Source of the DNA: Candidatus Daviesbacteria bacterium GW2011_GWA1_41_61
GTDB lineage: Bacteria; Patescibacteriota; Microgenomatia; Daviesbacterales; UBA10151
Reading direction: 5' to 3'
Assembly (NCBI GenBank): GCA_000997385.1
Contig: LCBT01000001.1
Location: forward strand, 307,663 to 371,662
DNA length: 64,000 bases
Position numbers and translations under genes: made by a program. This document shows positions 1 to 58,802 of this stretch, piece by piece. Each line of letters opens with the position of its first letter. The first letter of the stretch is position 1. The notes below the pieces were generated by a model, which searched no databases, was not told where the DNA came from, and saw only the letters and a list, made by a program, of their open reading frames with translations.

Positions 1-155
1 TTTAAGATGTCGATAACCATATGGATATAATTTATCAATTATATTTTTGGCTTCTATCTCTGTTAATTCGTCAACCTTTTCTTCTCCACCACGAACACGA
101 CAATAGATGCAATTTAAATTACATTTTTTAGTGATTTCCCAGTTAATGCTTAAAG
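1..155 (-). CDS. radical SAM protein, N-terminal fragment (gene runs off the window start)
   Basis: Minus-strand ATG at 153-155 gives MNNTLSINWEITKKCNLNCIYCRVRGGEEK..., which carries a CxxxCxxC radical SAM cluster motif. Not in the ORF track because fewer than 60 codons lie inside the window. Confidence 0.5.
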
Positions 156-157
156 TA

Positions 158-1507
158 TTATTCATTTGAGCGAAGTGTTATTGCGCGTGCTCCTAATAAT
201 TTTATTAGCATATTTTTTGTACCTACGGTGCTTAAAGATTTATCTTTTGCGTAACGTAATATTTCTTGAAAAGTATGCTTTCCATTTAATACTTCTTTCA
301 AGAGGAGAACAGATTGCAAATCAATAGAAATTGTTTGATGTCGAGTAATAAGTAGCTTATTTTTATGTGTAAGATTTAGTTTTGTGAATTTATCTGGACA
401 AATAATATCCTTTGCTTTTATTCTTGTTTTATGATCCTTATCTTTCTGCTTCGTCATAAACATTTGTAGTCTTTTTTGCCATTGAACCTTCGTTATTGGT
501 ATTTTTTTGTAATTTCTGACTGCATAATCAATACAGTATTTACCCTTTTGACTATTGTCCACTTTACAACCACCTAAGCACTTATTAAATAAAAAGCAGT
601 CTTTGCAAGGGACGATAACCCATGATTTATTTCGGAATTCATCAAGATTTTTATCCTTCCAAATCTCAATTAGATTATGTTTAAGAATATTTCCATATGA
701 AGTATCCGATTGGTTGCAGATTCTTACTTCTCCATCAGGGCTAATCACTAACAATGATACTCCAGCGCCACAATTAGCTAATAAGCCATACTCAGGTAAT
801 CTAGCATCAAGACAAAATGGAACTGCAGTACAAAAACCAATATGGAGCTTGGTTTTATCTTGAAGTCTAATAATTTGATCTATAATTTTTTTAAAATGAT
901 CTTTTGAAGGAACTAAATCAGTAAAATTTGCTACACCTAATCCTGCTGGCTCAAATTTGTTTATAGAATATTGATATATTCCCCATTCATTAGCTAAAAA
1001 GGCGATTTCTTCAAAATTATTATAATTTATTGAAGTTAATGTAAAATCTAAATTGACTTCAAACCCATTAGAAATATATTTTTTAATATTCTTGGTTATT
1101 TGTTCCCACTGGCATATTTGTTGAAGTTTGTCATGATATTTTTTCGTGCCATGAAGTGAAATATATATTGATGCCAAAGCGGGAGTTAAATCTTTAATAT
1201 AAATAATCCCGTTAGTTTGAATAGATACATTGGAATTTTTACTTAACTCGTTAATAATTTCATTTAAAAATTTACTCGGGAGAAGTGAAACTTCTCCACC
1301 AGTTAATTGAACATGAGGAATGTGGGATTTTGTAACTTGATGTACGATTTTCCTTAATTTTTTGTAATTTGGAGGATTATTCCTATTAGGGTTGTAGCAA
1401 AATGAACAGTGAGCATTGCAATTATATGAAGTTTCAATTTGTACAAAATGCGGAATCTCTTCGAAAGGAATTTTTTCCATAATTTTATTAGCACAATTAT
1501 TCATCAT
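158..1507 (-). CDS. radical SAM/SPASM-domain protein (RiPP maturase-like) with a C-terminal extension of about 115 aa
   Basis: N-terminal CNAHCSFC (CxxxCxxC) motif and a C-terminal SPASM-type CKDCFLFNKCLGGC motif. 449 aa. Confidence 0.8.
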   Translation of the reverse strand: MMNNCANKIMEKIPFEEIPHFVQIETSYNCNAHCSFCYNPNRNNPPNYKKLRKIVHQVTKSHIPHVQLTGGEVSLLPSKFLNEIINELSKNSNVSIQTNGIIYIKDLTPALASIYISLHGTKKYHDKLQQICQWEQITKNIKKYISNGFEVNLDFTLTSINYNNFEEIAFLANEWGIYQYSINKFEPAGLGVANFTDLVPSKDHFKKIIDQIIRLQDKTKLHIGFCTAVPFCLDARLPEYGLLANCGAGVSLLVISPDGEVRICNQSDTSYGNILKHNLIEIWKDKNLDEFRNKSWVIVPCKDCFLFNKCLGGCKVDNSQKGKYCIDYAVRNYKKIPITKVQWQKRLQMFMTKQKDKDHKTRIKAKDIICPDKFTKLNLTHKNKLLITRHQTISIDLQSVLLLKEVLNGKHTFQEILRYAKDKSLSTVGTKNMLIKLLGARAITLRSNE

Positions 1508-2905
1508 AACGATGAATCACAAATTGACTTGGATTATAATCAATCCCGCCCTCCCCAATAATATCTCTAAAAACTTTTTCGATGTATTTTACTGATTCTT
1601 TTGGATTTACTTCGAAAGTATTATCTTTATATATTGAGGATCTAGTATCATCCCATTGATCAAAACGCTCTAATAATTCTGGTTTAATCAGACTATGTGT
1701 TCTTGTATATAATTCTGTGCCTGGAAAAGGAATTAATACAGATAATCCAATATAAGACGGTTTTACTTGACAAACAAAAGCTGCGATTGCTTCAATATCT
1801 TCTTTTGTTTCAGTTGGTACACCAACCATAAAAAAACATCCTGGCTTCATGCCTACTTCTCTTGCCCAAGTCATTGCTTGAGTCGCTTGATCTATACTAA
1901 TGTTTTTACCTAAATAAGTTAATAACTTTTCAGTTGCAGCTTCAATGCCAAAATAGATTTCTTTACAACCAGAATCGTACATGGTTTTTAATAATTCAGG
2001 ATCAACAGTGTTAACTCTTGCTTGACATGACCATGATACCTCTAGACCCTTAGACTGAATTTCTTGGCATAATCCAAGCATGACATCTCTCTGAGTTGAC
2101 AAATTGTCATCAAAAAAAATATATCTTCTACTAAATTATAGTCTGAAGTAATTCTCTCCATCTCATTTACAATTCTTGTAGGAGAATTGTGTCGAAATTT
2201 ACGACCAAAAATTGTTTTATCACAAAAAACACATGCGTATGGACAACCTCTTGATGGAAAAATTGATATTGATCCCATCCCACCGTTTTTTTTCCAAAGC
2301 TCAATGTATCGACTCGCATCAATTGCCTCTAAATCAGGAAATGGAAGAGTATCTAAATCTTGAATTTGTGCTCGTGGGGGATTTATTTTTATCTGATCTT
2401 TGGTAAAAAGTACTGTACCCTGTATATCATCAAATATGTATTGAGGTTTAAGCAACTCTTTGCTTCGGTTATCAGAACCTAAAAAGCGTTTCATAATATT
2501 AGCCCATGTTAATTCTCCCTCACCTTGGCAAACAAGATCAACAGAATTACCAGTATAACTATAGAATTGTTCAGGTGATAAACAATTCGGACCAGCACCT
2601 CCAAAAACTACAGTTGACCAAGGATTTGATGCTTTTATTTTCTTTGCTAACGCAACAGAATCTGGAAGTTGCATTAGCGTAGCCGATATCCCAACTAATT
2701 GTGGGCCTTTTTTATCAAGTAAGTTTGCAATTTTTTCTGGGAATTCGGAAAATTGACTATCAATTACATTTATTCCAATTCCGTTTTGTATTCCAATGGC
2801 AGAAAGATATGCTATACCCAATGGAGGATATGGAATGCCACTATGCATCCATTTAGCTGGAGGTGAAATTAGATGAATAGTACTTAATTCTCGTTCTGAT
2901 GTCAT
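1497..2905 (-). CDS. B12-binding radical SAM protein, interrupted by a -1 frameshift (two ORFs, 2042..2905 and 1497..2102)
   Basis: The N-terminal ORF has a B12-binding Rossmann-like segment (VGISATLMQ...VVFGGAGPN) and RGCPYACVFCD. The downstream ORF continues the radical SAM core (SWSCQARVNTV...GCKEIYFGIE). Adding one A to the A8 run at 2113-2120 restores DIFFFDDNLSTQRDVMLG in one frame. Confidence 0.75.
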
Positions 2906-3028
2906 ATTATTATATACAGTTTTTCTTACATAATGGGCATAAATTTATAGTAAATGTTATAATTCAGCGTATTATAACAAATAATTGATTTAAAACATTG
3001 ATTAAGGCTATAAGATATAAAATTTCAT

Positions 3029-3727
3029 ATGTTATGGGGTGTGCTTACTAAGGCTGATTTTACAAAAGAGGTTAAAGAAAAAACTGTCATTATTCCAATT
3101 GGTGCAATTGAGGCACATGGAAATCATTTACCTGTAAATACAGATTCCTGTATAGTTGAATACCTAGCCGAGAAAATTGCCAAACATACTGGTTGTATTG
3201 TGGTTCCTACAATCTATTATGGACCTTGCGAAACCATGCTATCATTTGCTGGAACTATAACTATTTCTGAGAAAATTAGCTATAAAATTATTGAAGAAAT
3301 TATAAAATCTATTATTTGCCAGGGATTTAAGCAAATTTACATTTTGAATGGACATGGTGGGAATAATGAATTTTTGGCAAGAATTGCTAATAAATACTCA
3401 AAAAAGCTCAATGTTAAGACAAAAAACTGGTATGATTTGGAAATTATTAATAAACTCAAACAAGAGAATACTAGTTATTGTGGAGATCATGCAGATAGAT
3501 TAGAAACTGAAATTATGTTGGCAATAGATAAACAGAAAGTCAGAATGGAACTGGCAGTTGATGATATGCCTAATTGGCCAGAAAACACTGAAATGTTGAC
3601 AGATTATAGTAAAATAATGACATATGCAGTTGAAGGATATCCTTCAAAATCAACTCTGAAAAATGGAAAATTACTATTACCTAAAGTAATAAAAAGTTTA
3701 TGTGAAGATATTGGTAATTTTCTATAA
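3029..3727 (+). CDS. creatininase (creatinine amidohydrolase) family protein, MftE-like
   Basis: IGAIEAHGNHLPVNTD motif typical of the creatininase fold. 232 aa. Divergent from the radical SAM genes. Confidence 0.75.
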   Translation: MLWGVLTKADFTKEVKEKTVIIPIGAIEAHGNHLPVNTDSCIVEYLAEKIAKHTGCIVVPTIYYGPCETMLSFAGTITISEKISYKIIEEIIKSIICQGFKQIYILNGHGGNNEFLARIANKYSKKLNVKTKNWYDLEIINKLKQENTSYCGDHADRLETEIMLAIDKQKVRMELAVDDMPNWPENTEMLTDYSKIMTYAVEGYPSKSTLKNGKLLLPKVIKSLCEDIGNFL

Positions 3728-4076
3728 TATGACTAAGGAGCGTTTAGAAAATATGGATGATAAAGACAGAAAAAATTTCTTAGTTCCAGAACAGGAACCA
3801 TATATTTGTGGCAATTGCGGTATTGAAATTATGGGAGGAAGATACAATAATCATTGCCCACAATGTCTTTGGAGCAAGCACGTTGATGATAAAATTCCAG
3901 GAGATAGAAGCTCTGACTGTCAGGGGATGATGAAACCAGTTGGAGTTTTTCAGAAAAAGGGTAAATGGAGAATCAAACAAGAATGTACAAAATGTGAGCA
4001 TACTTTTATTATTGATAGCTCTCCAGAAGATGATTTTAGCATCATTATTGAACTCTCAAAAACCCCTTTACGTTAA
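3702..4076 (+). CDS. RNHCP-domain zinc-ribbon protein
   Basis: CGNCG...RYNNHCPQC...CTKCEH cysteine pairs including the RNHCP signature. The start is uncertain: an ATG at 3753 has an AAGGAG site upstream. Confidence 0.5.
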   Translation: MKILVIFYNMTKERLENMDDKDRKNFLVPEQEPYICGNCGIEIMGGRYNNHCPQCLWSKHVDDKIPGDRSSDCQGMMKPVGVFQKKGKWRIKQECTKCEHTFIIDSSPEDDFSIIIELSKTPLR

Positions 4077-4551
4077 GAATTAAAGATTTGTCACTAAAAA
4101 GACAAAGGATTCTAAATTTACTGGTTGATATAGCTTAACACCCTATAATTAGAGTTTGCAGATCGTAAAATACCCTGCGGCAGAGACCACAGGGAGTCTC
4201 TCATCCTTGAAAAAGTTTAAATTATCTCGCAAGTATTGCACCAAAACAGGCGTAAGATTACTTTTTGGGAGTTTAATATGGTTATTTACTATTATTGTTA
4301 AACCACGCAAAAGGAATATCTAAAAAATACCGAAAAACTCCAAAAAAGATTTCAACGCTTAGCAGTCAAAATAGAGAAAGAGGTGGAGAGAGATATAAAA
4401 GGATCGCGATAAAAAGTTCATGTATGATCCTTCGAATTTGCTCACCATACAAGGTTAAAAGCCAACTAACCCCAGGGGTTGGAACCCTTATTACCCTCCG
4501 GGTGTGAAATGCGTAGTTGCCCAGAGCCAGCAATATCTTGTGGTTACCTTC

Positions 4552-4935
4552 TTAACTATTCCCCTTTTGAGATGTAAAGGCGTTAATGCTTAAATACAAA
4601 GCAATACCAAGTGGTGCTGCATGCTCTATAGCATCCAAAAGTCCACTAATATTCATACTACTTAGCAAGAGTATGATAACTGTACCTATCCAAATGACTG
4701 CCCAAGTATTAATAAGTTTAGGTAATACTCGAAAAGCGATAAATATACCAATAATTGCATCATGTATACCTATCAGCTGAATTGGAACTTTATCTAGTAT
4801 GTTTTTAAAAATTACTGAATTAGCAATTACATCGCTGATTTCATCTGGAGAGATAAATGCTTTAACCGCCATGGCCACAAAAGTCAATGCAAGCCCCAGA
4901 CTAAGAATGTAGATATGCCACCTTTGCATATTCAT
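4552..4935 (-). CDS. small integral membrane protein, function unknown
   Basis: 127 aa with several hydrophobic helices and no recognisable family. Confidence 0.45.
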   Translation of the reverse strand: MNMQRWHIYILSLGLALTFVAMAVKAFISPDEISDVIANSVIFKNILDKVPIQLIGIHDAIIGIFIAFRVLPKLINTWAVIWIGTVIILLLSSMNISGLLDAIEHAAPLGIALYLSINAFTSQKGNS

Positions 4936-5095
4936 GTTTAGTTGATTTTTAAGCCACCTACTTTAATATTAGTAATAAGTTCCCACAGAGTCAACCCAGA
5001 TTAAATCGGAGCCAACCAGTGCCAGCAAGCTGGGCCAAGCAAAACTGACTAAGGTTAACACTTAAAATTAGAAACTGTGGTATAATACACAAGCA

Positions 5096-5365
5096 TTGAA
5101 TAACACCACCACCATCTCCGCTTCTTTAAAATGCAACCAGTGTGGCTGTGAACTCATTCTCCAAAAAACCGGTATCAGAAATACTCAAAATTGCTTCTTC
5201 CCTACCACAGTTATTACCTACCGCTGTTCTAATAAATCCTGTCAGGAGGAAATAGATAAGAAAACTGTTAAAAGAATCGAATTAAGACATGAGCAAGAAC
5301 TAGCCAGACAAAAACGTTTGGAAAATATGACCAATAGAAAGTATAATCAACCAAAAACTGTCTAA
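5096..5365 (+). CDS. small zinc-ribbon protein, hypothetical
   Basis: CNQCGC ... CSNKSC cysteine pairs and a basic C-terminus. Followed by a terminator. Confidence 0.4.
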   Translation: MNNTTTISASLKCNQCGCELILQKTGIRNTQNCFFPTTVITYRCSNKSCQEEIDKKTVKRIELRHEQELARQKRLENMTNRKYNQPKTV

Positions 5366-5397
5366 AAGGGCACCGGTTTACACCGATGCCCTTTTTT
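5364..5397. terminator. bidirectional rho-independent terminator
   Basis: AAAAGGGCA-ccggtttacaccga-TGCCCTTTTTT lies between the convergent genes ending at 5365 (+) and 5400 (-). Confidence 0.6.
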
Positions 5398-5399
5398 AA

Positions 5400-5744
5400 T
5401 TAATGACCTCGGCGGTTACCTCGGAAATTCCTATTAGAAGAAAAACTTGGTTTGTTATCTCTTCGATCAAACCCTCTTGAGAAATTCTCATCTCTTGGTT
5501 CTCTTGGCCTGGCCTCATTAACCACAATAGCCCGGCCGTCTAATGTCTGGCCGTTAAGCTGTTGTATTGCCTTCTGTGCTGCTTCATCATCCATTTCTAC
5601 AAACCCGAAACCTCTTGATCTACCGGTAAATTTATCATTTACGACGGTTGCTGATAAAACTTGTCCCACTTGAGAGAAAAAATCTTTTAATGATTGGTCG
5701 GTGGTATCCCACGAAAGTCCACCTATAAATAGTTTTTTAGTCAT
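5400..5744 (-). CDS. RNA-binding protein with RRM domain and an Arg/Gly-rich tail
   Basis: RNP-2-like KLFIGGLSW and RNP-1 RGFGFVEM motifs. 114 aa. Confidence 0.85.
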   Translation of the reverse strand: MTKKLFIGGLSWDTTDQSLKDFFSQVGQVLSATVVNDKFTGRSRGFGFVEMDDEAAQKAIQQLNGQTLDGRAIVVNEARPREPRDENFSRGFDRRDNKPSFSSNRNFRGNRRGH

Positions 5745-5932
5745 ACAGTTATCACCTCCAATTTATTCACGATCTCTGGCAAACTGTATAACTAACACTA
5801 TTTAAGAAGAAGGATAACTTTTCTTGCTAATAAGTTATATTAATACTAGTTACAAAAAGAGTAGTGAATTCTTATCCAAGTATATCATACTAATGCATTT
5901 CAAGCAACTAACCCGTAGTAAATTCGGGCATA

Positions 5933-7351
5933 TTAATTAAATAGACTGATTTGGCTCTTTTTTATAATTTTTGTAATAGCTTCATCTTCTACTTCTAAAA
6001 AATTGGGGTGTTCTAATAAAGTTTTAAATCTGGAAACCTGATTTGGTTTCTTTTGGCGTTTTTTAGCATACAATAAATACAGCTCTTCCTTAGCCCGGGT
6101 CATAGCAACATAAAGCAAACGTTTCTCTTCCTCTAAATCTGCCTCATTCTTTATGTAGGGAATCAAGCCTTCTTCAAAACCGCAGATAAAAACAAATTTA
6201 AACTCTAACCCTTTGGCAGCATGCATGCTTAATAGTTTGATATGGTCTCCTTCTACAGGTGTATCTTCTTTAACAATCTGATAGGGCATCCCTGATTCCT
6301 CAAACTGCTTTCTTAAAACACCGCTTAGATGATGAGCCCGAAAAACTACGGCAAAATCAGAAAAATTTACCTGGGTTACCAGATGTTGAGCCTTAAGTAA
6401 ATCAGTTCCTCCGATTTTGTCACTGATAAATCTGATAACCCAGTCTGCCTCGGAGTATTCATTTAAAGTCTTAACTAAAGACACTTTTCCACCTTTCTTT
6501 GAGGCAGGTTGTAGAGTTAAAGACTGAGGAAACAACAAATTACTTATTTGTACAACATTGCTGTGACTGCGGTAATTAATACCTAAAGTTTCTTCACAAA
6601 CTGCTGAAAAATCATCTTTTAAAGTCTTAAAAACCTCGGCACTGGCTCCCCGAAAGCCGTATATTGACTGAAAAGGATCGCCAATTACAAAAAGATTAGG
6701 ACTATCCTTTAAAATCATTTTAATAATTTGATATTGCAAATCATTAGTATCTTGAAACTCATCTATCAAAATATATTGATAAAGATTTTTTAGTTGCCGT
6801 CTCTTATCATTTTTCTCTTCTAAGCTCTTGTACATTTGCATTAACAGATCATCAAAATCTAGAAGTTGTTGCTGATTCAATGCCTTATTGTAATCTACAA
6901 TAAGTCTCTCCATCTCTGAATCTTTTTTAGAAGGGTTAGTCGTACTTTTATGTTGAGAAATAATTACAGACAAAGCGCGGGGGGATATCTTAACTTTACT
7001 TTTTCCAGCAACCTTTTTTAAAAGAGTCTCCTGATCTTCTTCAGAGATAATCTTAATCTCCCCAACTAAACCAGTTAAAAAATTAAAGGCCAAACCATGG
7101 AAAGTGGTTATTGTTGGCAAGTTACTTCCCAATATTAGGTTTAATCTCTCCTTCATCTCTAAAGCTGCCCGTTGGGTAAAAGTAAGAGTTAGAATATTTG
7201 CTGGGTTAATATGCTTTTCTAATATTAAATATGCCACCCTGCTTATTAAAGTTTTCGTCTTACCGGTTCCTGGGCCAGCCTTAACCATGACTACTCCGTC
7301 ACCTTGTTCTACAATCTTCCGTTGCTGATCATTTAAATCCAGAAAATCCAT
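5933..7351 (-). CDS. UvrD/PcrA-family DNA helicase (compact, 472 aa)
   Basis: Walker A GPGTGKTKTL, a DEFQD-like box (LIDEFQDTN) and motif VI LYVAMTRAKEEL. Confidence 0.8.
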   Translation of the reverse strand: MDFLDLNDQQRKIVEQGDGVVMVKAGPGTGKTKTLISRVAYLILEKHINPANILTLTFTQRAALEMKERLNLILGSNLPTITTFHGLAFNFLTGLVGEIKIISEEDQETLLKKVAGKSKVKISPRALSVIISQHKSTTNPSKKDSEMERLIVDYNKALNQQQLLDFDDLLMQMYKSLEEKNDKRRQLKNLYQYILIDEFQDTNDLQYQIIKMILKDSPNLFVIGDPFQSIYGFRGASAEVFKTLKDDFSAVCEETLGINYRSHSNVVQISNLLFPQSLTLQPASKKGGKVSLVKTLNEYSEADWVIRFISDKIGGTDLLKAQHLVTQVNFSDFAVVFRAHHLSGVLRKQFEESGMPYQIVKEDTPVEGDHIKLLSMHAAKGLEFKFVFICGFEEGLIPYIKNEADLEEEKRLLYVAMTRAKEELYLLYAKKRQKKPNQVSRFKTLLEHPNFLEVEDEAITKIIKKSQISLFN

Positions 7352-7357
7352 AATTTT

Positions 7358-8647
7358 TTATAGTAGGCTCATTTGTCCTGATAACTTTTTCCTCTCCTCT
7401 TTATCTTGGAAAATCTTTATAGTTCCATATACTCCGTCATAGCCTGGCTCAATAACAACCTGCCCTTTTCTCATCTTATCAATAGCAAAGGAAAGATCAT
7501 CAAACCCGGCCTTTTTTATGGCATCAATAGAAAGTCTTCTTAAAATATTAAACTCATTGCCCAATATTGAATAAACTTTTTCATAAAGCCCCAAAACAGG
7601 TTTGGAGCTGACCCCAGTACCTTTTACTTCAGCAATAATTTCAACTAAGGGAATAATATATTCTACTAATTTATCATTTGGGGGTTTGTAATCTGTGGGG
7701 TGATTAGCTAGATCATCCACCCGATGATCTACTCCCACTGTTACTGGTTTATGACAAACCGGACAGATTCCCTGATGTTGTTTAGTTTCTTGAGGAGAAA
7801 AACGGACATGATGATCCCTATGACCATCATAGTGATATTTACCTTCCTGAGGGAAAAACTCAATGGTCCCTACCACTCTTTGGTCATTGGTTTTTATACC
7901 TTGGACAATATCAAAGTAATCCAGCTTGGAATCTATCACTGTAGCCTCGCGTCCAAGTTTTGAAGGGGAATGGGCATCGGAGTTAGAGATAATGGCAACT
8001 TTTTGTAACTGGTCAAGCCGCCAATTCATAAAAGGATCCGAAGAAAGACCTGTTTCAATAGCCTTAATTTCCAAAGACAACTCTTCAAAAGCCTCTTGGA
8101 TAGAATCAAATCCAGAGTTGGAGCCAAACAAGGCAAAATAGGGTGTCCAAATATGGGCTGGAATGAATAAAATATTTGGGTCAGTTTCCAGGCAAATTTT
8201 TAGTAACTCTTTACTATCAAGACCCAATATAGGCCTGCCATCAGCTTTTAAATTACCGATATGGGACAATCTTTCACCAACTGCCGACACAACTTCAAGA
8301 GTTGGAGCCACTATTAGATTATGGAGTTTTCTGACTTTGCCATATTTACTATAAATATTGCTGATCTCCACAGTTAAAATAAAGCGTATCGCCTGACCTT
8401 GAATAGATTGGGGAAGGCTAGCATCAACTTCTAAAGCATATTTTTCTTTTAGTCTAAAAAGTCCTGGCTCTGCCGGCTCTAATTTTTCCTGAAGTTCTAA
8501 ATACCAGCTTGGATGAGTAAAATCCCCGGTGCCGATAATACTGATTCCTTTAATCTTTCCCCATTTATATAAACCCTCTAATGTAGAGTCACGGCTTGTA
8601 GCTCGGGAGTAATGAGAATGAGTATGCAGGTCAACAATTAATTCCAT
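7358..8647 (-). CDS. PHP-domain nuclease, endonuclease Q (EndoQ)-like
   Basis: N-terminal DLHTHSHYSRATS PHP motif, a Zn-ribbon-like CPVCH with flanking His residues, and about 430 aa as in EndoQ-family proteins. Six nucleotides upstream of the helicase gene. Confidence 0.55.
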   Translation of the reverse strand: MELIVDLHTHSHYSRATSRDSTLEGLYKWGKIKGISIIGTGDFTHPSWYLELQEKLEPAEPGLFRLKEKYALEVDASLPQSIQGQAIRFILTVEISNIYSKYGKVRKLHNLIVAPTLEVVSAVGERLSHIGNLKADGRPILGLDSKELLKICLETDPNILFIPAHIWTPYFALFGSNSGFDSIQEAFEELSLEIKAIETGLSSDPFMNWRLDQLQKVAIISNSDAHSPSKLGREATVIDSKLDYFDIVQGIKTNDQRVVGTIEFFPQEGKYHYDGHRDHHVRFSPQETKQHQGICPVCHKPVTVGVDHRVDDLANHPTDYKPPNDKLVEYIIPLVEIIAEVKGTGVSSKPVLGLYEKVYSILGNEFNILRRLSIDAIKKAGFDDLSFAIDKMRKGQVVIEPGYDGVYGTIKIFQDKEERKKLSGQMSLL

Positions 8648-8746
8648 TTAATAATTATACCCTGAAACTTTCCACTTTTTCACACCTTCTCCAGCATCAG
8701 ACGTAGCAACTTGTTTCTAACATTACCTCCTGCTATTATTTAAGGA

Positions 8747-28296: not shown

Positions 28297-28368
28297 AAAT
28301 TTCTACTGGATACAGAAATTACTCTTTTAATATACAGTTTTGGTTAGCTTTTTGTCAATTGGAGGTTA

Positions 28369-29193
28369 TCAGGCAGTAATCGGCCGGGCTTGCAAGATAT
28401 AAAAATTACCTTTTTCTAGAGCCCATTCAATATCTTGAGGGTAACCATAATGACTTTCAATTACTTTACCCAAATCTGCCAGCTTTTGAACCTGTTGGTA
28501 AGTCAAAGCTTGTTTACTACCATTCTCATTAGAAAGCTGAACTTCCTTATTTTCTCCATCTTTAAAAATGAGCATTCTTTCTTGGGTTTGGATATCAATA
28601 CTTTTTATCTTTAAAGTATTTTTGTCTGCTACAAAGTTATCAGGGGTAATCATCCCCTGGACTAAATACTCTCCCAAACCAAAACCTGCCTCTATCATTA
28701 TTTCACCATCATTTTTAGTAACCGGGTTTTGGGTAAACATCACCCCAGACACCTCACTTTCCACCATCTTTTGAACTACCACTGCTACTACCAGTTGATC
28801 TTCCGATAAATTTTGTCCAGCAGTATAAGATAAAACCCTTTCAGATCTGATGGAGTTCCAACACTTTCTGATATTTTCGATTAAGTCAGCCCTGGTTACA
28901 TTCAGATAACTCTCCAGCTGTCCGGCCCAAGAGGCAGTTTTAGAGTCTTCAGCAATAGCAGAGGAGCGCACAGCTACTCGCTCTGTTTCTAACCCATTAA
29001 AAGCTTGAAGGATCTCTTCTATAACATCAACAGGAAGCTCATTATTTACAAACTGCCTATAAGTTTTGGCAGTCACTACAAATCCAGGAGGTACTGGGAT
29101 GCCAGCTTGAGTCATCTCCCCCAAAGAAGCTCCTTTCCCCCCAACCTCTGCCACATCCTCCTTAGAAATCTGTTTAAAAGTTTTAATATACAT
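28369..29193 (-). CDS. standalone PPDK_N (pyruvate phosphate dikinase / PEP synthase N-terminal ATP-grasp) domain protein
   Basis: MYIKTFKQISKEDVAEVGGKGASLGEM matches the N-terminus of PEP synthase and rifampin phosphotransferase. 274 aa. Lacks the swivel and TIM-barrel domains. Confidence 0.8.
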   Translation of the reverse strand: MYIKTFKQISKEDVAEVGGKGASLGEMTQAGIPVPPGFVVTAKTYRQFVNNELPVDVIEEILQAFNGLETERVAVRSSAIAEDSKTASWAGQLESYLNVTRADLIENIRKCWNSIRSERVLSYTAGQNLSEDQLVVAVVVQKMVESEVSGVMFTQNPVTKNDGEIMIEAGFGLGEYLVQGMITPDNFVADKNTLKIKSIDIQTQERMLIFKDGENKEVQLSNENGSKQALTYQQVQKLADLGKVIESHYGYPQDIEWALEKGNFYILQARPITA

Positions 29194-29525
29194 TAATTTA
29201 AAATTTTCACTATCCCTTCATTAGCATCAACTTCTACTAAATCTCCATCTTTTAACACTTGAGTAGCTATACCGCTGCCGACAATACAAGGAATACCCAG
29301 CTCACGCGAAACAATAGCTGCATGGCAAGTTACTCCTCCAATATCTGTGACAATCGCTGCTGCTTTTTTAATAGCTGGCATAAACTCAGGTGAGGTCATT
29401 TCTATCACCAAAATCTCCCCTTCTTCCATTGAATCTGCGTCTTGAGGAGATCTTAAAACACGCACTTTGCCTTTGACTAAACCTAATGATGCAATAATAC
29501 CTTTAAGCAAACTATCTTTTTTCAT
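29193..29525 (-). CDS. standalone PEP-utilizing enzyme mobile (swivel phospho-His) domain protein
   Basis: GGVTCHAAIVSRELGIPCIVG with the catalytic His. 110 aa. Confidence 0.8.
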   Translation of the reverse strand: MKKDSLLKGIIASLGLVKGKVRVLRSPQDADSMEEGEILVIEMTSPEFMPAIKKAAAIVTDIGGVTCHAAIVSRELGIPCIVGSGIATQVLKDGDLVEVDANEGIVKILN

Positions 29526-29527
29526 AA

Positions 29528-30586
29528 CTAGCTTACAAAATCATTTCTGGGATCATATAATTTTTTAAAGAAACTGTCTGACAAATTTTTTTCTGAGGGA
29601 TTATTTGATTCATATTCATCCCAAAACTTGTTACCCCAACTTTTCAAACGGTTGTGGAATTCTTTTGGTGGTCTCCAATCTTGTTTGTAATAACTAAAAA
29701 AGGGATTAAACATGTAATAATAAATGTCCGCTCCTTTTTGGATAAAATCCTTAGGTTTCATTTTATTGATTATGTCTAGCTGGACTTTCCTTTGGGTACC
29801 AAAATAATCATCCAGCTTTTTGATTTCTTCTTCACTAGGTAGGAACCGGCCATCAACTTCAACTGCAATTTTCTCCAGATTATTCCAAATATCGCTTTGG
29901 TAAATTATATGGTTCATAAAATCAATCTTCGCTTCAACTTTACCCTTAAAATAATAATAAATACTGATATTTTTATAAGGAATTGCTTGTCCCCAAACAG
30001 GAGAATTTAAATCAGTAAAACTTTTGACAAGAACCGTGTCATTAGTGGAAGTCTGATAAGGACCGTGCCAATACGCGCCATAAGCGTAAATATCAAAATC
30101 AATTGACCAAACAAATGACTCCAAATCAATACTCAAAAAATTAACCACTCTTTTAAAGCTTTTATCAAGCCAGATAAGTTTTGTTATTTTCTTCTTTAAT
30201 TCTTCAGGTTTATAGATCAAGTTCTGCTCGTCTAAAGAAAAAGGGTTAGACGAAATTTGAGATGCTAAAACCTCACAAGTTGCCTCTATTAAAGAAGCCA
30301 TTTCTGATTCTGTGACTTTAAAATGATTAAATTCCCTAGCAACTTTTAACCCCAAAATTGTAAAAGGTAAGAAAAACCATCTTAGAATGTGGGAGGATAC
30401 AGTAGAAAGGCCTGCTTTAAACTGACCTGTATTTTCTTTAAACTTATCAAAAAACTCTATCGCTAAAAGATCATTAAAATAAGCGTCTACTTGACCGGGA
30501 GCTACTGGCCAATATTTTGATTCCCCGCAATTTTGCAAGGACCTAAGTACTGCTTCTAAGTAGTCTTCAACAACTTGATTGTTCAT
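29528..30586 (-). CDS. hypothetical protein (352 aa) in an operon with the split dikinase domains
   Basis: No recognisable motifs. Translationally coupled to its neighbours, with overlaps or gaps of 4 nt or less. Confidence 0.5.
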   Translation of the reverse strand: MNNQVVEDYLEAVLRSLQNCGESKYWPVAPGQVDAYFNDLLAIEFFDKFKENTGQFKAGLSTVSSHILRWFFLPFTILGLKVAREFNHFKVTESEMASLIEATCEVLASQISSNPFSLDEQNLIYKPEELKKKITKLIWLDKSFKRVVNFLSIDLESFVWSIDFDIYAYGAYWHGPYQTSTNDTVLVKSFTDLNSPVWGQAIPYKNISIYYYFKGKVEAKIDFMNHIIYQSDIWNNLEKIAVEVDGRFLPSEEEIKKLDDYFGTQRKVQLDIINKMKPKDFIQKGADIYYYMFNPFFSYYKQDWRPPKEFHNRLKSWGNKFWDEYESNNPSEKNLSDSFFKKLYDPRNDFVS

Positions 30587-31272
30587 GGATTCTTTATTTC
30601 TAATCTTAATCCTTTATAAATTAAAGTTGGTTCTTGGCCAGAAACTGGCAAGCTAATCTTAAATTCTTCACAATTTACCAAAGAGCCTTCCGGCCTTTGT
30701 CCTGTTAAGCCCTGGATAAGCACTTCTGAGGGTCCAGTGTGTGTTATAACAACAATATGTACATCTGGACCTTGAGGAGATAATTTTTTAGCAAAATTAG
30801 CTAACTTTGAAAGATAAGAGTTAAAGTTCTCTCTACTTTTTTCTACAGCTTCAGTTGGATTATCTAGGAAATAATCCAAAGGGTTTTGGCCTTTAAACAA
30901 TACATTCAGCCATTCTTCTGTTGCTTTATCACTGACAGCCAGACGACTAAATGCTTTAGGTCTTTCATTATGGAGTACGATATTTTTACCTGACTTTCTA
31001 ACCAGCTCAGCAACTTCTGCCTGGATTTCTTGGGCAGTTTGTATTGTCCTTAACCGAGAACTTGAATGAAATGCGACAACTGCTCCATCTGATAAATCAT
31101 TAAACAATTTTTCTCCTGCTTGCCTGGCCTGTTGTCTTCCTTTTTCTGTGAGATTACCTTCATAGTCCTCAACTTTTTTATATTCAGCTTCTCCATGACG
31201 GATAAAATGAAGCACTGCTTTTCGGGAAGTCAGTTCTTGTTCTTTAATTTCCCTAGCATCAGAAGTCTCCAT
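30583..31272 (-). CDS. histidine phosphatase superfamily (SixA/PGAM branch) protein
   Basis: LHFIRHGEAEY (RHG motif) and SSRLRTIQTA. 229 aa. Confidence 0.75.
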   Translation of the reverse strand: METSDAREIKEQELTSRKAVLHFIRHGEAEYKKVEDYEGNLTEKGRQQARQAGEKLFNDLSDGAVVAFHSSSRLRTIQTAQEIQAEVAELVRKSGKNIVLHNERPKAFSRLAVSDKATEEWLNVLFKGQNPLDYFLDNPTEAVEKSRENFNSYLSKLANFAKKLSPQGPDVHIVVITHTGPSEVLIQGLTGQRPEGSLVNCEEFKISLPVSGQEPTLIYKGLRLEIKNP

Positions 31273-33604: not shown

Positions 33605-36451
33605 GTGCCCAAAGATTTAACTGCTCTTTTTTATCCCCAATCCATCGCTGTTTTAGGAGCATCACGTTCTCCTCAAAAAATAGGGGCGGTTGTTTTAAAA
33701 AATATCATTGACTCCCACTTTAACGGTTCAATTTACCCCATCAACCCTCAAGCACAGTCCCTTAACGGCTTAAAGTGTTACCCTGATTTAAGCTTCCTCC
33801 CCCACACCCCCGATCTGGCTATTATCTGTCTTCCTGCCTCATCAATAGTGGAGATACTCAACCAGATAGGAAGAAAGGGGGTTAAAAATGTGGTGGTGTT
33901 CTCAGCCGGTTTTAAAGAGAGCGGAGAGGAAGGAGAGGCTTTAGAAAATCAGTTAGTAGAGATAGCCCAAAAATATCAATTGAATATTTTAGGACCTAAT
34001 TGTTTAGGTTTTGCCAACAATCTCTGCCCCATAAATGCCACCTTTGGAGAGATTGTCAGTCAAATAGGGAACCTGCGTTTTATCTCCCAATCCGGAGCGA
34101 TCGCTGCCGGTCTTTTTGACTGGTTTAAAGTTAGCGGCATAGGGTTTTCTCAATTTGTAACCTTAGGGAATAAGGCAATTTTAAACGAAAATGATCTCTT
34201 AGAGTATTTTGCCGATCACCCGATTTCCATCTCTCAAGAAGGCCTATCTGAGGTGAGTCCCATTGGGATGTATCTGGAATCAATTTCTGACGGGCCAAAT
34301 TTTCTACGTTTAACTGGCCAAATGTCTAAAAAAGATCCCATTTTTATTATTAAACCTGGAAAAACTAAAGAGGCTGCCAAAGCGATGCAATCTCATACCG
34401 GAGCTATTGCCGGGCAAGATGAGGTCTTGGAGGCAGTTTTAAATCAGGCTGGGGTGATCCGTTGCCAAACCCTGGAAGATTTCTTTGATCTATCCCGGGC
34501 CTTTGCCTGGGAAAACGCTCCGCAGGGACCTCAAGTAGCTATTATCTCCAATGCCGGAGGTCCGGCAGTCATCTCAGCTGATGCCGTGATAGAGGAAGGA
34601 TTAGAGTTAGTCCAGTTTGACAGCCCAACTAAAGAACATCTGGCTCAAATTTTACCCCGGGCCTCAACCATCTTAAACCCGGTGGATGTGTTAGGAGATG
34701 CTTTAGCACAGCGTTTTGCTCAAGCTGCCGAGATTATCCTTCAAGGGAATCAATCTCAGGCGTTGGTGGTTATCTTAACGCCTCAGTTGATGACTCAAAT
34801 TGGCCAAACTGCCCAAAATTTAGGAACCCTTTCCCAAAAATACCACAAACCAATCTTTTGTTCCTTTATTGGGGGAAGCCGGATTGCCGAAGGGGAACAA
34901 AAATTGAACGAGTACAAAATTCCTTCTTTTCGTTTTCCAGAACGGGCGATTGCTGCCGTTGGAGCCATGTGGCGCTGGAAAAAACAACAAACTGAACAAA
35001 AAGAGGGTTCATTAACTACTACAGAAGTTCCCTCTAAGATAAGTGCTATAGAAAAAATTATTCAAAACGCCCTGGAAAATAACCAAAAAACCTTGGATAA
35101 TCTTCAATCTAACGACCTGATATCCAAACTGGGTATTCCTACCCCCCCTACCTTGGAAGCGGCAGATCTAAACCAGGCCAAGGATTTTGCTCAAAGCAGC
35201 GGCTGGCCGGTTGTTTTAAAACTTTCCTCACCCGGGCTATTACATAAAAAAGAAATAGGAGGGATTATAACCAATGTTTATAACTGTCACCAACTGGAGA
35301 CAGGCTGGGAAGCGCTGCAAAGAAAGATTACCCAGCTTGATAGTGCCATCCAAGATCATATCAAAATCCAGATTCAAAAAGAGATTGCCCAAGGAATAGA
35401 AACAATCGTCGGGATAAAACATGACCCTACTTTTGGGCCAGTACTGCTCTTTGGCGCAGGAGGCTCTTTGGCCGAACTGATTGCCGACAAAAACATGCAT
35501 CTTTTACCCATAGATCTGACTCAAGCTCAAATATTAGTAAAACAATCCAAAATTTATCCCCTTCTCCAGGGCAAACAAGGGGAACCTCCTTACTTATTAG
35601 ATAAACTCTATCAAACCATCGTCCAGATGGCTAAATTGTCAGAGGTGACTACCGAAATTTCAGAGATGGAAATCAATCCTTTGATTATCACTTTAAATAA
35701 TGTCTGGGCAGTAGATAATAAAGTCATCCTTAAAAAGGGAGAAGAAAAAACTGTACCTAAACCTCAGTTTCGATTGGCCACAACTTTGGAACACACCCAC
35801 CTGGTCAGCAACTTCCACTACTTTACTTTCACTACAAACCAACCCCTCATTTTCCGGCCAGGACAATATATCAGCGTCAAAGTAGCCGGTGACAGAATCA
35901 ACTGTTATTCTATTGCCGGGCAAGATAAACCTAGTGAATTTAATTTACTGGTCAATGTGACACCTGCCGGGCCGGGATCCAAATTTTTTGAAAACTTAAA
36001 AGTGGGAGAAAAAATTACTTTTCTTGGTCCGTTTGGAACTTTTGCCTTCAGTCCCGATGATGGTTCCAGTCATCTGTTATTTTTGGCCACCGGCAGCGGG
36101 TTGGCCCCCTTGATCTATATGATAAATAAAATTCTCCATGAAGATGGTGAACAAAAACAAATCACCTTATATCTGGGATTTAATACCCATCAAGATATCT
36201 TCTGGTTAGACAAGTTCCAAAAATTACAGGCCCAACATCCTAACTTCAATTACCATATTATAGTTTGGAAACCAGATACCAACTGGCAGGGAGAAACAGG
36301 TTTTATCACCCAAGCCATCGAGAAAAATCTTCCCGATACTACTAACTGTTCAGCTTACCTTTGCGGAAATAAGGGGATGATTGTTGACGCCATAAAAGTT
36401 ATAATAGAACGCGGTTGTCCCAAAGATCGGATTTACACCGAAAAATTTTAG
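33605..36451 (+). CDS. ADP-forming acetyl-CoA synthetase (fused alpha and beta domains) with a C-terminal FNR-like FAD/NAD(P)-binding oxidoreductase domain
   Basis: N-terminal CoA-binding domain (IAVLGASRSPQKIG), succinyl-CoA-synthetase-like and ATP-grasp domains. The C-terminal region of about 240 aa has the FNR-family RPGQYISVK, ATGSGLAPL and YLCGNKGM motifs. Confidence 0.8.
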   Translation: MPKDLTALFYPQSIAVLGASRSPQKIGAVVLKNIIDSHFNGSIYPINPQAQSLNGLKCYPDLSFLPHTPDLAIICLPASSIVEILNQIGRKGVKNVVVFSAGFKESGEEGEALENQLVEIAQKYQLNILGPNCLGFANNLCPINATFGEIVSQIGNLRFISQSGAIAAGLFDWFKVSGIGFSQFVTLGNKAILNENDLLEYFADHPISISQEGLSEVSPIGMYLESISDGPNFLRLTGQMSKKDPIFIIKPGKTKEAAKAMQSHTGAIAGQDEVLEAVLNQAGVIRCQTLEDFFDLSRAFAWENAPQGPQVAIISNAGGPAVISADAVIEEGLELVQFDSPTKEHLAQILPRASTILNPVDVLGDALAQRFAQAAEIILQGNQSQALVVILTPQLMTQIGQTAQNLGTLSQKYHKPIFCSFIGGSRIAEGEQKLNEYKIPSFRFPERAIAAVGAMWRWKKQQTEQKEGSLTTTEVPSKISAIEKIIQNALENNQKTLDNLQSNDLISKLGIPTPPTLEAADLNQAKDFAQSSGWPVVLKLSSPGLLHKKEIGGIITNVYNCHQLETGWEALQRKITQLDSAIQDHIKIQIQKEIAQGIETIVGIKHDPTFGPVLLFGAGGSLAELIADKNMHLLPIDLTQAQILVKQSKIYPLLQGKQGEPPYLLDKLYQTIVQMAKLSEVTTEISEMEINPLIITLNNVWAVDNKVILKKGEEKTVPKPQFRLATTLEHTHLVSNFHYFTFTTNQPLIFRPGQYISVKVAGDRINCYSIAGQDKPSEFNLLVNVTPAGPGSKFFENLKVGEKITFLGPFGTFAFSPDDGSSHLLFLATGSGLAPLIYMINKILHEDGEQKQITLYLGFNTHQDIFWLDKFQKLQAQHPNFNYHIIVWKPDTNWQGETGFITQAIEKNLPDTTNCSAYLCGNKGMIVDAIKVIIERGCPKDRIYTEKF

Positions 36452-57621: not shown

Positions 57622-58802
57622 AGCATCTCTTCTATCTCTATCAACCTTTGATATTTGACTAACCTTTCTTTTTGCAAGGGACAGCCACTCTTTAAACCAT
57701 CGGCTCCCAGTCCCACTGCCAAATCAGCAATGAAAGTATCCATTGTTTCTCCGCTGCGGTGGGAGACAATAACTTTCCAGCCATATTTTTGAGCTAAAGT
57801 AGCAGCTTTGATAGTTTCTGTCACTGAACCAATTTGGTTAGGTTTGATGATAACAGCATTGACTGCTCCTTTTTGATAAGCTTGGGTAATCCTTTGAGGG
57901 TTGGTAGTGGTTAAATCATCTCCCACAACCCACACTTTACTCCCCAATTGTCTTCTAATATCTTCAAATCCCTGCCAATCATCTTCCTGGAAAGGATCTT
58001 CTATGGAAAGCAGGGGAAAATCTGAAGCAAAATTATGATACAAACTTAACATTTCTTTTTCATCCAGTAACTTTTCTCCTATCTGATACTTGCCATCTTT
58101 AAACAACACTGAAGCAGCTACATCTAAACTTAATTTGCTGTGAGTATCTATACCAGATCTTACTTCTTGTAAAAGTTCCAAACCCTCTCTGGGGTTATCC
58201 GAAGGCATGGTAAAACCACCTTCATCTCCGTAAGTTACCTTTCCATATCTTTGATACTTCTTCCCTTCTAAAATTTTTATGGCCTTTTGGGCCAACTCTA
58301 GACTGAATTTAGGAGAAACAGTTTGGGGAACCAACAAATACTCTTGGAAAGGTAAGGAGTTTTTAGCATGAACCCCTCCTTCAATTAAATTATAAAAACA
58401 CAGTGGTAATTTTTGAATCTTGTGACCAATTATCCCAGCTATTAATTGATAAATCTCCAAATTTTGAGATGCTGCCAAAAGCTTAGTAAAACCAAGACTT
58501 AAGACCAAAATTAAATTCCCACCTAAATTTTGTTTATTAGGAGTATTGTCTAAAGAGATAAGGTAATTATCAAATTCCTCTAGGGTAGAAAACTGCCGGG
58601 TAAACAAATTAAATTTAATCTCAGTAAATTTTTCTAAAGCTTCCTCTGGTTCTAACACAAAGGCTTCGTTTGAGCCTTTACTCTTTCCGGAAGGGACACT
58701 AGCCACTACCTTGTGCCCCTCCAAGCTCATCTCGACTTCTAAAGTCTTCTCACTCCGGGAATCAGGGATAATTTTTAGGGTAATATCATCTATTTTCATC
58801 AC
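57618..58802 (-). CDS. eno: enolase (phosphopyruvate hydratase)
   Basis: SHRSGETMDTFIADLAV signature and an N-terminal enolase domain. Confidence 0.9.
   Translation of the reverse strand: MMKIDDITLKIIPDSRSEKTLEVEMSLEGHKVVASVPSGKSKGSNEAFVLEPEEALEKFTEIKFNLFTRQFSTLEEFDNYLISLDNTPNKQNLGGNLILVLSLGFTKLLAASQNLEIYQLIAGIIGHKIQKLPLCFYNLIEGGVHAKNSLPFQEYLLVPQTVSPKFSLELAQKAIKILEGKKYQRYGKVTYGDEGGFTMPSDNPREGLELLQEVRSGIDTHSKLSLDVAASVLFKDGKYQIGEKLLDEKEMLSLYHNFASDFPLLSIEDPFQEDDWQGFEDIRRQLGSKVWVVGDDLTTTNPQRITQAYQKGAVNAVIIKPNQIGSVTETIKAATLAQKYGWKVIVSHRSGETMDTFIADLAVGLGADGLKSGCPLQKERLVKYQRLIEIEEML

Follow-up and report, generated by a model that had tools for sequence, protein, structure and literature searches.

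Within a stretch of 64,000 nucleotides from Candidatus Daviesbacteria bacterium GW2011_GWA1_41_61 (contig LCBT01000001.1, positions 307,663 to 371,662; hereafter the window), four contiguous genes encode a histidine phosphatase (HP), a protein of a previously undescribed family (X), a stand-alone swivelling phosphohistidine carrier (SW) and a stand-alone ATP-grasp module (AG). We hold, with modest confidence, that they form a self-contained system consisting of a three-polypeptide water-dikinase of the phosphoenolpyruvate (PEP) synthase lineage and its dedicated phosphatase. What distinguishes the system is a novel acceptor domain, a dedicated phosphatase (branch 1 of the histidine phosphatase superfamily) that co-evolves with this domain, and a split into three polypeptides that leaves the swivel carrier free. 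Full-text searches of a paper library retrieved no description of the system, nor of any three-component dikinase with a free swivel phospho-carrier, in line with an initial annotation of the window that had called the system uncharacterised.

The dikinase core is formed by AG and SW, which share the catalytic machinery of the PpsA/PPDK superfamily, AG through the PPDK_N motifs and SW through the swivel histidine. AG matches Pfam PPDK_N (PF01326) with E = 4.4e-84; an alignment to PpsA shows no change in its motifs GGKGASLGE, VAVRSSA..ED, GLGE, D.EWA and Q.RP.T, and some 36 residues of a helical insert that PpsA has are missing from AG. SW covers positions 2-72 of the 72 positions of the Pfam PEP-utilizers mobile domain (PF00391, E = 3.1e-28). 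The swivel motif GGxT[SC]HAA[IV] is present in SW as GGVTCHAAIVSR, with the catalytic histidine at position 68, and the longer form of the motif, GGxTCHAAIVSR, agrees with the PEP-synthase consensus quoted in the literature (PMC12167813). Both proteins are nearest to PEP synthase: the NCBIfam PpsA model PRK06464 is matched with E = 1.1e-84 by AG and 5.8e-39 by SW, the best NCBIfam match of SW falls on PpsA positions 354-460, and the closest solved relative of AG is the PEP synthase 8a8e (E = 3.4e-70), ahead of the rifampin phosphotransferase (RPH) structures 5hv1 and 5fbs. This proximity holds at the level of domains, as AG and SW reach 285 and 134 bits with the NCBIfam PpsA equivalog, for which the cut-off is 598, and stay far under every full-length cut-off. 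The PEP-utilizers_C TIM barrel (PF02896) was matched by none of the four proteins. The window moreover holds a genuine full-length ppsA (Table 1), to which AG is 31% and SW 53% identical, so that the initial annotation rightly set the four genes apart from the housekeeping enzyme.

The position of X in the system is indicated by gene fusions. An exhaustive profile search delimited a family of 423 cluster representatives at E <= 1e-3, or 315 at E <= 1e-10. Among the best 150 of the 423, X stands alone in 132, whereas it is fused as AG-SW-X in nine (about 770 aa), as SW-AG-X in one and as SW-X in four, and is duplicated in two X-X tandems. A 774-aa protein of this kind (locus L003) is composed of AG (residues 1-283), SW (321-391) and X (416-773), and its C-terminal part aligns with the X family over the full length (hhalign probability 99.85%, E = 1.3e-30). 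The catalytic motif GG..SH is kept in every fused swivel. Because relatives thus fuse X C-terminally to AG-SW, SW-AG or SW, in a typical Rosetta-stone pattern, X appears to complete the dikinase as its third module, standing where PpsA has its PEP/pyruvate TIM barrel, and we infer that it is the acceptor-binding module of the second half-reaction. The initial annotation had already put the 352-aa protein where a substrate-binding module would be, and the fusions bear this out. The fused relatives share with PpsA the order ATP-grasp, swivel and third domain; they differ from it in the third domain itself, and the window system further differs by its separate polypeptides and its histidine phosphatase, in a genome that has its own PpsA. 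That X might be a diverged PEP-utilizers_C barrel was considered and rejected, given an hhalign probability of 0.5% against the C-terminal domain of the PpsA encoded in the window.

To place these genes in their context, profile models of HP, X, SW and AG were mapped onto 24 fetched loci; these scans used a narrower X alignment, which biases the loci toward closer relatives, and, with word-indexed homologue searches yielding 8, 12 and 4 matches, gene context was examined for a small part of the 423-representative family. The gene set recurs in at least four orders across Microgenomates (Daviesbacteria), Parcubacteria/Paceibacterota and Saccharibacteria, all lineages of the Candidate Phyla Radiation (CPR), and some loci lie in unclassified metagenome-assembled genomes (MAGs). 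The four-gene synteny that the initial annotation had proposed to look for is therefore found in several arrangements. The window order HP-X-SW-AG is also seen at L012, within a 146-kb contig. SW-X-HP-AG occurs at L009, L010/L020 and L016; AG lies slightly further along after SW-X-HP at L015 and L011, and the contig ends before any AG at L006/L018 and L008. Other loci carry two copies of X, arranged as Xa-HP-SW-Xb-AG (L004), as a fused AG-SW-Xb followed by HP and Xa (L003), or as SW-X-HP-HP'-SW-X'-AG (L023). HP and X are found as a pair only at L001/L002/L007, L014 and L024, SW-X is followed by an unrelated 225-aa ORF (open reading frame) at L021, and X stands alone in an ABC-transporter operon at L017.

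These comparative data also refute the notion, raised by the initial annotation as what would overturn its proposal, that the ORFs are pieces of a decaying ppsA-like pseudogene. Such a notion could draw on the existence of fused AG-SW-X proteins in relatives and on the public annotation, which names SW and AG 'phosphoenolpyruvate synthase'. However, the window order HP, X, SW, AG is collinear neither with PpsA nor with the fused form, X is unrelated to the TIM barrel, each ORF is intact with its own start codon and has conserved full-length homologues at more than 12 distinct loci, all catalytic motifs are kept, and an intact ppsA lies elsewhere in the window. We consider this explanation practically untenable. 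Chance can likewise be excluded for the four ORFs, since they are long, their domain scores are very strong and their homologues are conserved.

HP belongs to branch 1 of the histidine phosphatase superfamily (Pfam His_Phos_1, PF00300, E = 1.6e-14). It has the RHG nucleophile histidine and the Arg/His core of that branch, and R25, H26, R75 and H178 are invariant in nine homologues from X loci, very divergent ones included. The initial annotation had named it a SixA-like phosphatase, which stands at the level of the superfamily but not beyond. The SixA model (TIGR00249) gives 30.2 bits against a cut-off of 74.5, over residues 21-87 only, and is outscored by the CobC (E = 2.4e-11) and PspA NCBIfam models; the nearest PDB sequences are a putative phosphoglycerate mutase and a phosphoserine phosphatase. 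The structure model of HP is of low confidence (predicted local distance difference test, pLDDT, 60) and matches RosC, PGAM5, phosphoserine phosphatase, TIGAR, CobC and PhoE about equally, with a Foldseek probability of 1.00 to many members; no match described as SixA was among the top 50 fold matches of this low-confidence model. By these comparisons, HP is a generic branch-1 phosphatase and not specifically a SixA.

Genomic linkage ties HP to X. Some HP-X pairs have neither SW nor AG in the 8 kb that flank them on each side (L001 and L002), others lie on short contigs (L014 and L024), and the start and stop codons of the two genes overlap in the window as well as at L001, L003 and L024. Where X is duplicated (L003, L004 and L023), one paralogue adjoins HP while the other adjoins or is fused to SW/AG. 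The two proteins also diverge together: across eight complete sets, median identity is 33% for HP, 34% for X, 55% for SW and 53% for AG, and the divergences of HP and X are correlated (Spearman 0.70). Within one subtype (L009 versus L010), HP and X are 90% and 91% identical, SW and AG 67% and 71%. HP and X thus stay near 90% within a subtype and fall to about 30% between subtypes, whereas SW and AG drift steadily at 50-70%. HP therefore tracks X more than SW or AG, and the pattern fits discrete X/HP 'specificity types' set on a generic AG/SW core for phosphoryl delivery.

This linkage bears on an explanation that keeps the same dikinase core but makes HP a SixA-like brake or reset, discharging the phospho-His68 of SW and leaving the product untouched. 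HP does lie in the branch that contains SixA, with the same RHG motif and conserved Arg/His core, and is co-transcribed with SW at most loci; SixA itself dephosphorylates NPr, a phospho-His carrier downstream of a PEP-utilising enzyme, as well as the Ndk intermediate (PMC7948535, PMC6282199, PMC12934123). On the other hand, HP is linked to X and not to SW, which makes an action on the phospho-His carrier less likely: the HP-X pairs persist where SW and AG are not nearby, HP co-varies most with X, and its translational coupling is to X. It is very divergent between subtypes while its supposed substrate SW is well conserved. The HP proteins, which measure 229-394 aa and include a cap or insert, also differ from SixA of about 160 aa, and CobC, PspA, RosC and PGAM5 are neighbours of HP as good as SixA or better. 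We regard a SixA-like role as unlikely, although with a real share of the probability.

In X itself, nothing was matched in Pfam, NCBIfam, PADLOC or the PDB sequences, either with the single sequence or with a 59-member profile, and no weak Pfam match recurred among the 59 members. The initial annotation had suggested modelling the protein with AlphaFold, and the AlphaFold2 model is confident (mean pLDDT 87.4, predicted template modelling score 0.87). It shows a mixed alpha/beta layout, with an N-terminal helical bundle, a central region with a six-stranded sheet and C-terminal helices. A Foldseek search of PDB and BFVD with this model returned nothing significant; its weak top neighbours, MlaC/Ttg2D, START, SRPBCC and BamC (E >= 0.28, TM-score <= 0.35), are a lead only. 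Across the family, the most conserved positions are G175 (100%), P27 and Y177 (both 99%), P176 and W198 (both 95%), followed by P306 (85%), W304 (84%) and an aspartate at the position of N114 (82%). Conserved polar positions are K284 (78%), H174 (77%) and K81 (73%). H174 is replaced by phenylalanine or tyrosine in part of the family and is for that reason unlikely to be an obligatory phospho-acceptor.

The two tandem proteins, P0039 (665 aa) and P0061 (711 aa), had been candidate HP-X fusions, a possibility rejected as both consist of two X domains. The HGPY motif reads YGPY, FGPY or FGQY in them. P0039 has a markedly different composition, rich in alanine, arginine and glycine, pointing to a source other than the low-GC genomes of CPR. 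Because X-X tandems and Xa/Xb paralogue pairs occur, X probably acts as a dimer that bridges the kinase and phosphatase sides.

The conservation of the G-P-Y motif raises the possibility that X is itself the phospho-acceptor, for instance at Tyr177, so that the dikinase would switch X and HP would reverse the switch. The near invariance of Y177 beside few conserved classical catalytic residues and the tight coupling of HP to X speak for it, as does the presence of protein phosphatases in branch 1, one of them, PGAM5, ranking high among the fold matches of HP. Swivel domains hand phosphate to proteins in the phosphotransferase system. We know, however, of no precedent for a transfer from phosphohistidine to tyrosine, and a histidine relay at H174 is unlikely, given its replacement by phenylalanine or tyrosine in part of the family. 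A fusion of kinase and substrate at the exact position of the catalytic domain, as in AG-SW-X, would be more typical of an enzyme module, and no output domain or partner for a switch is evident. This explanation appears improbable to us.

Comparison with the known dikinases and their relatives places the system near PpsA and apart from RPH. RPH and the PRK06241-type enzymes PigC, RedH and HapC likewise combine an ATP-grasp domain, an acceptor-binding domain and a swivel histidine in a toggling mechanism, and the domain order of RPH is ATP-grasp, rifampin-binding domain and swivel (PMC4844700). The fused relatives of the window system instead show AG-SW-X (nine) or SW-AG-X (one), X has neither sequence nor fold similarity to the rifampin-binding domain, and the NCBIfam RPH model scores 240.9 against a cut-off of 999. 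Both the AG and SW modules and the order seen in the fusions resemble PpsA and not RPH. Of the split PpsA- or RPH-like system put forward in the initial annotation, the split phosphotransfer and the likeness to PpsA (best structural match 8a8e and fused order) are thus retained, the likeness to RPH less so. A closer parallel in architecture is offered by the two-component small-molecule dikinases HpeHI, CreHI and PpsAB, in which the ATP-grasp domain is also a separate subunit and the His-swivel hands phosphate to a distinct acceptor module (PMC12167813). Their swivel is fused to an RPH-like binding domain, giving two components, whereas here SW is free and the components are three; since the fold of X is unrelated, the arrangement is analogous and does not amount to membership. 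Those enzymes serve aromatic catabolism with downstream carboxylases, in place of which the window system has a phosphatase and no such conserved partners.

Such relatives nonetheless suggest another explanation, in which the phosphate has an activating role or departs as a leaving group, as in the PigC/RedH/HapC ligases and phenylphosphate synthase, or in which a xenobiotic bound by X is inactivated in the manner of RPH, with HP as a mutase or accessory protein. AG and SW score well against the PigC, RedH and RPH models at the domain level, these relatives use the same AG/SW chemistry on small hydrophobic molecules (PMC4844700, PMC13534948, PMC12167813), and the non-significant Foldseek neighbours START, MlaC and SRPBCC are folds for hydrophobic ligands. 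Yet the loci examined show no conserved downstream enzyme beside the unit, whether condensing, carboxylating or other, X is unrelated to the rifampin-binding domain, and the scores remain far under all full-length model cut-offs. Resistance of the RPH type moreover needs no phosphatase, and HP is nearly always present. We find this explanation very doubtful.

Returning to the water-dikinase with its dedicated phosphatase, the observed modules, motifs, fusions and linkage lead us to infer a mechanism in three steps. AG would first bind ATP; His68 of free SW would attack the beta-phosphate and water would take the gamma-phosphate, releasing AMP and Pi and leaving SW-His~P. This step is drawn from established dikinase chemistry (RPH, PMC4844700; HpeHI, PMC12167813) and from the intact motifs, and the expected reaction is that of a dikinase (ATP -> AMP + Pi + phospho-product), which corrects the pyrophosphokinase of the initial annotation. 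Phospho-SW would then dock on X and pass its phosphoryl group to an acceptor held by X, as the fusions of X to AG and SW suggest. Finally HP, working with X probably as a complex, would hydrolyse the phosphate on the X-bound acceptor, a step that follows from the linkage and co-evolution of HP and X. The outcome may be a reversible phosphorylation cycle, or a sequence in which the acceptor is phosphorylated, acts and is dephosphorylated.

Precedents for this mechanism are found in the split two-component small-molecule dikinases HpeHI, CreHI and PpsAB (PMC12167813), in the swivel mechanism of RPH (PMC4844700) and in the cycle of dikinase and phosphatase acting on starch (PMC13553574). In the latter, alpha-glucan, water dikinase (GWD), which also has a swivel histidine and a PPDK_N domain, is functionally paired with the phosphoglucan phosphatases SEX4 and LSF2, and its order of binding or central domain, histidine and ATP-binding domain corresponds to the window order X, SW, AG. 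GWD, however, is a single large protein that carries CBM45 modules and whose central domain is entirely helical, in contrast with the mixed alpha/beta model of X and its lack of a PDB match, and its phosphatases are dual-specificity (laforin-like) enzymes that are neither of the branch-1 histidine type nor linked in an operon. No carbohydrate-binding module (CBM45 or CBM20) was matched in the proteins, and nothing in these results points to glycan binding by X.

Several points weigh against the proposed dikinase with its dedicated phosphatase. A kinase and a phosphatase working on one small molecule make, on the face of it, a futile cycle. The evidence for it comes from sequence, modelled structure and gene linkage. 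Family-wide conserved polar residues are few in X (K81, the D114 equivalent, H174 and K284, in the proportions given above), so that a defined catalytic site is not evident. The family of HP does not set its target, since branch 1 holds phospho-His phosphatases as well as mutases, and the action of SixA on NPr and Ndk is a phospho-His precedent within that branch (PMC7948535, PMC12934123). Finally, X occurs without any partner nearby at L017, and a non-HP ORF follows X at the remote locus L021.

X might alternatively be an adaptor or catalytic domain of new fold that draws a dikinase with a swivel histidine and a phosphatase of the histidine family to a shared target, forming a reversible, ATP-driven and self-contained phosphorylation switch peculiar to CPR/Patescibacteria. 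A macromolecule or a cell-envelope component might be its target, or else X itself, through the unprecedented transfer from phosphohistidine to Tyr177. We deem this decidedly unlikely; if true, the cycle would belong to regulation or structure and not to metabolism.

PEP-utilising and dikinase enzymes are the classic model of swivelling-domain catalysis. To our knowledge, their acceptor modules are few, namely the PEP/pyruvate TIM barrel, the helical domain of the RPH/HpeH type and the central domain of GWD, and the X family adds a further acceptor domain, without detectable relatives. CPR/Patescibacteria have tiny genomes in which most conserved genes of undefined function are unexplained. 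The four-protein system, compact and widespread in these bacteria and predictable in its chemistry, could bring to light a phosphorylated metabolite or target not known before from uncultured CPR organisms. Its genes carry automatic public names, 'hypothetical protein', 'phosphoglycerate mutase' for HP and 'phosphoenolpyruvate synthase' for SW and AG, and this annotation presently misleads the metabolic reconstruction of CPR genomes.

At the locus itself, the four genes have the strand, order and boundaries given by the initial annotation, all being intact and in agreement with their Pfam domains (Table 1). It had described the junctions as overlapping or separated by 4 nt or less, and they measure -4, +2 and -1 nt: the stop codon of HP overlaps the start of X (ATGA), X and SW are separated by a 2-nt spacer (TAG tt ATG), and the stop of SW overlaps the start of AG by 1 nt (TAATG). 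The next gene after AG encodes a DUF3048 protein (Pfam). In the gap that precedes it, a TTGACA-18-TATATT site (positions 28358-28329, minus strand) matches the promoter consensus at 11 of 12 positions, a consensus match only. The site would serve the DUF3048 gene and points to an end of the unit at 28369, so that the four genes appear self-contained.

Table 1. Genes of the four-gene unit and related features, with positions counted from the first nucleotide of the window.
Feature	Positions	Strand	Description
HP	30583-31272	minus	229 aa; branch 1 of the histidine phosphatase superfamily; heads the unit; contains FIRHGEAEY
X	29528-30586	minus	352 aa; previously undescribed family; no Pfam match
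SW	29193-29525	minus	110 aa; stand-alone swivel phospho-His carrier; GGVTCHAAIVSRE, catalytic His68
AG	28369-29193	minus	274 aa; stand-alone PPDK_N ATP-grasp nucleotide-binding module
Spacer below AG	28297-28368	minus	72 nt; promoter-like site for the DUF3048 gene
Full-length ppsA	58786-61248	minus	820 aa; PPDK_N, PEP-utilizers and PEP-utilizers_C domains

Several of the related loci present features of their own. L023 (positions 3-5691), where the unit is followed by recO, holds two SW-X pairs, two divergent phosphatases and a single ATP-grasp gene; its 309-aa ORF is the second, divergent HP (hhalign probability 95.8%). As two SW-X pairs are found there with one AG, a single ATP-grasp protein may serve several swivel carriers that differ in X specificity. 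At L017 (positions 4972-8682 of a 208-kb contig), an X homologue 40% identical to that of the window has no HP, SW or AG within 6 kb and lies between two multi-pass membrane ORFs and an ORF resembling an ABC-transporter ATPase, as recognised by eye from the translations; either its partners lie elsewhere in the genome or X has a partner-independent role. In a distant branch of the X family, the 225-aa ORF that follows SW-X at L021 (positions 2937-3614, plus strand) is also seen at L022 (1272-1949). The L021 protein has no Pfam, NCBIfam or PDB-sequence match. Its identification as a divergent HP was not supported (hhalign probability 0.15%), nor was that as a HAD phosphatase, for which a HAD-like '...FVDDSPG...' stretch was seen by eye only; a non-orthologous protein substituting for the phosphatase is conceivable but unsupported. 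At L012 (positions 5304-5987), the HP homologue was matched as two overlapping pieces in different ORFs (model positions 10-113 and 148-270), perhaps because of a frameshift or sequencing error, or because the phosphatase has become a pseudogene.

An HP-X pair is carried by the MAG of L001/L007 (CAZZNI010000006.1), whose label reads 'uncultured Gammaproteobacteria bacterium', whereas all other taxonomically labelled X loci examined are CPR/Patescibacteria; either the binning or the label is at fault, or the pair truly occurs outside CPR. Genes of toxin-antitoxin or defence type occur sporadically near the unit: those for AbiEii (L003, 1000-1662), PIN (L024, 964-1410) and Fic (L011, 4019-5101) proteins lie just upstream of it at three unrelated loci. 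A PADLOC search for known anti-phage defence systems gave zero matches for all four proteins of the window.

The neighbours of the unit in the window look like housekeeping genes, with DUF3048 and a Mg-chelatase/ComM-type ATPase recognised by Pfam and a SecD-like ORF by eye from its translation. Further along, on the plus strand (33605-36451), a 948-aa ORF encodes a complete enzyme of the ADP-forming acetyl-CoA synthetase type (CoA_binding_2, Succ_CoA_lig, Ligase_CoA_2 and ATP-grasp_5) fused to a C-terminal module of the ferredoxin-reductase type (FAD_binding_6 and NAD_binding_1), a combination of domains that looks unusual.

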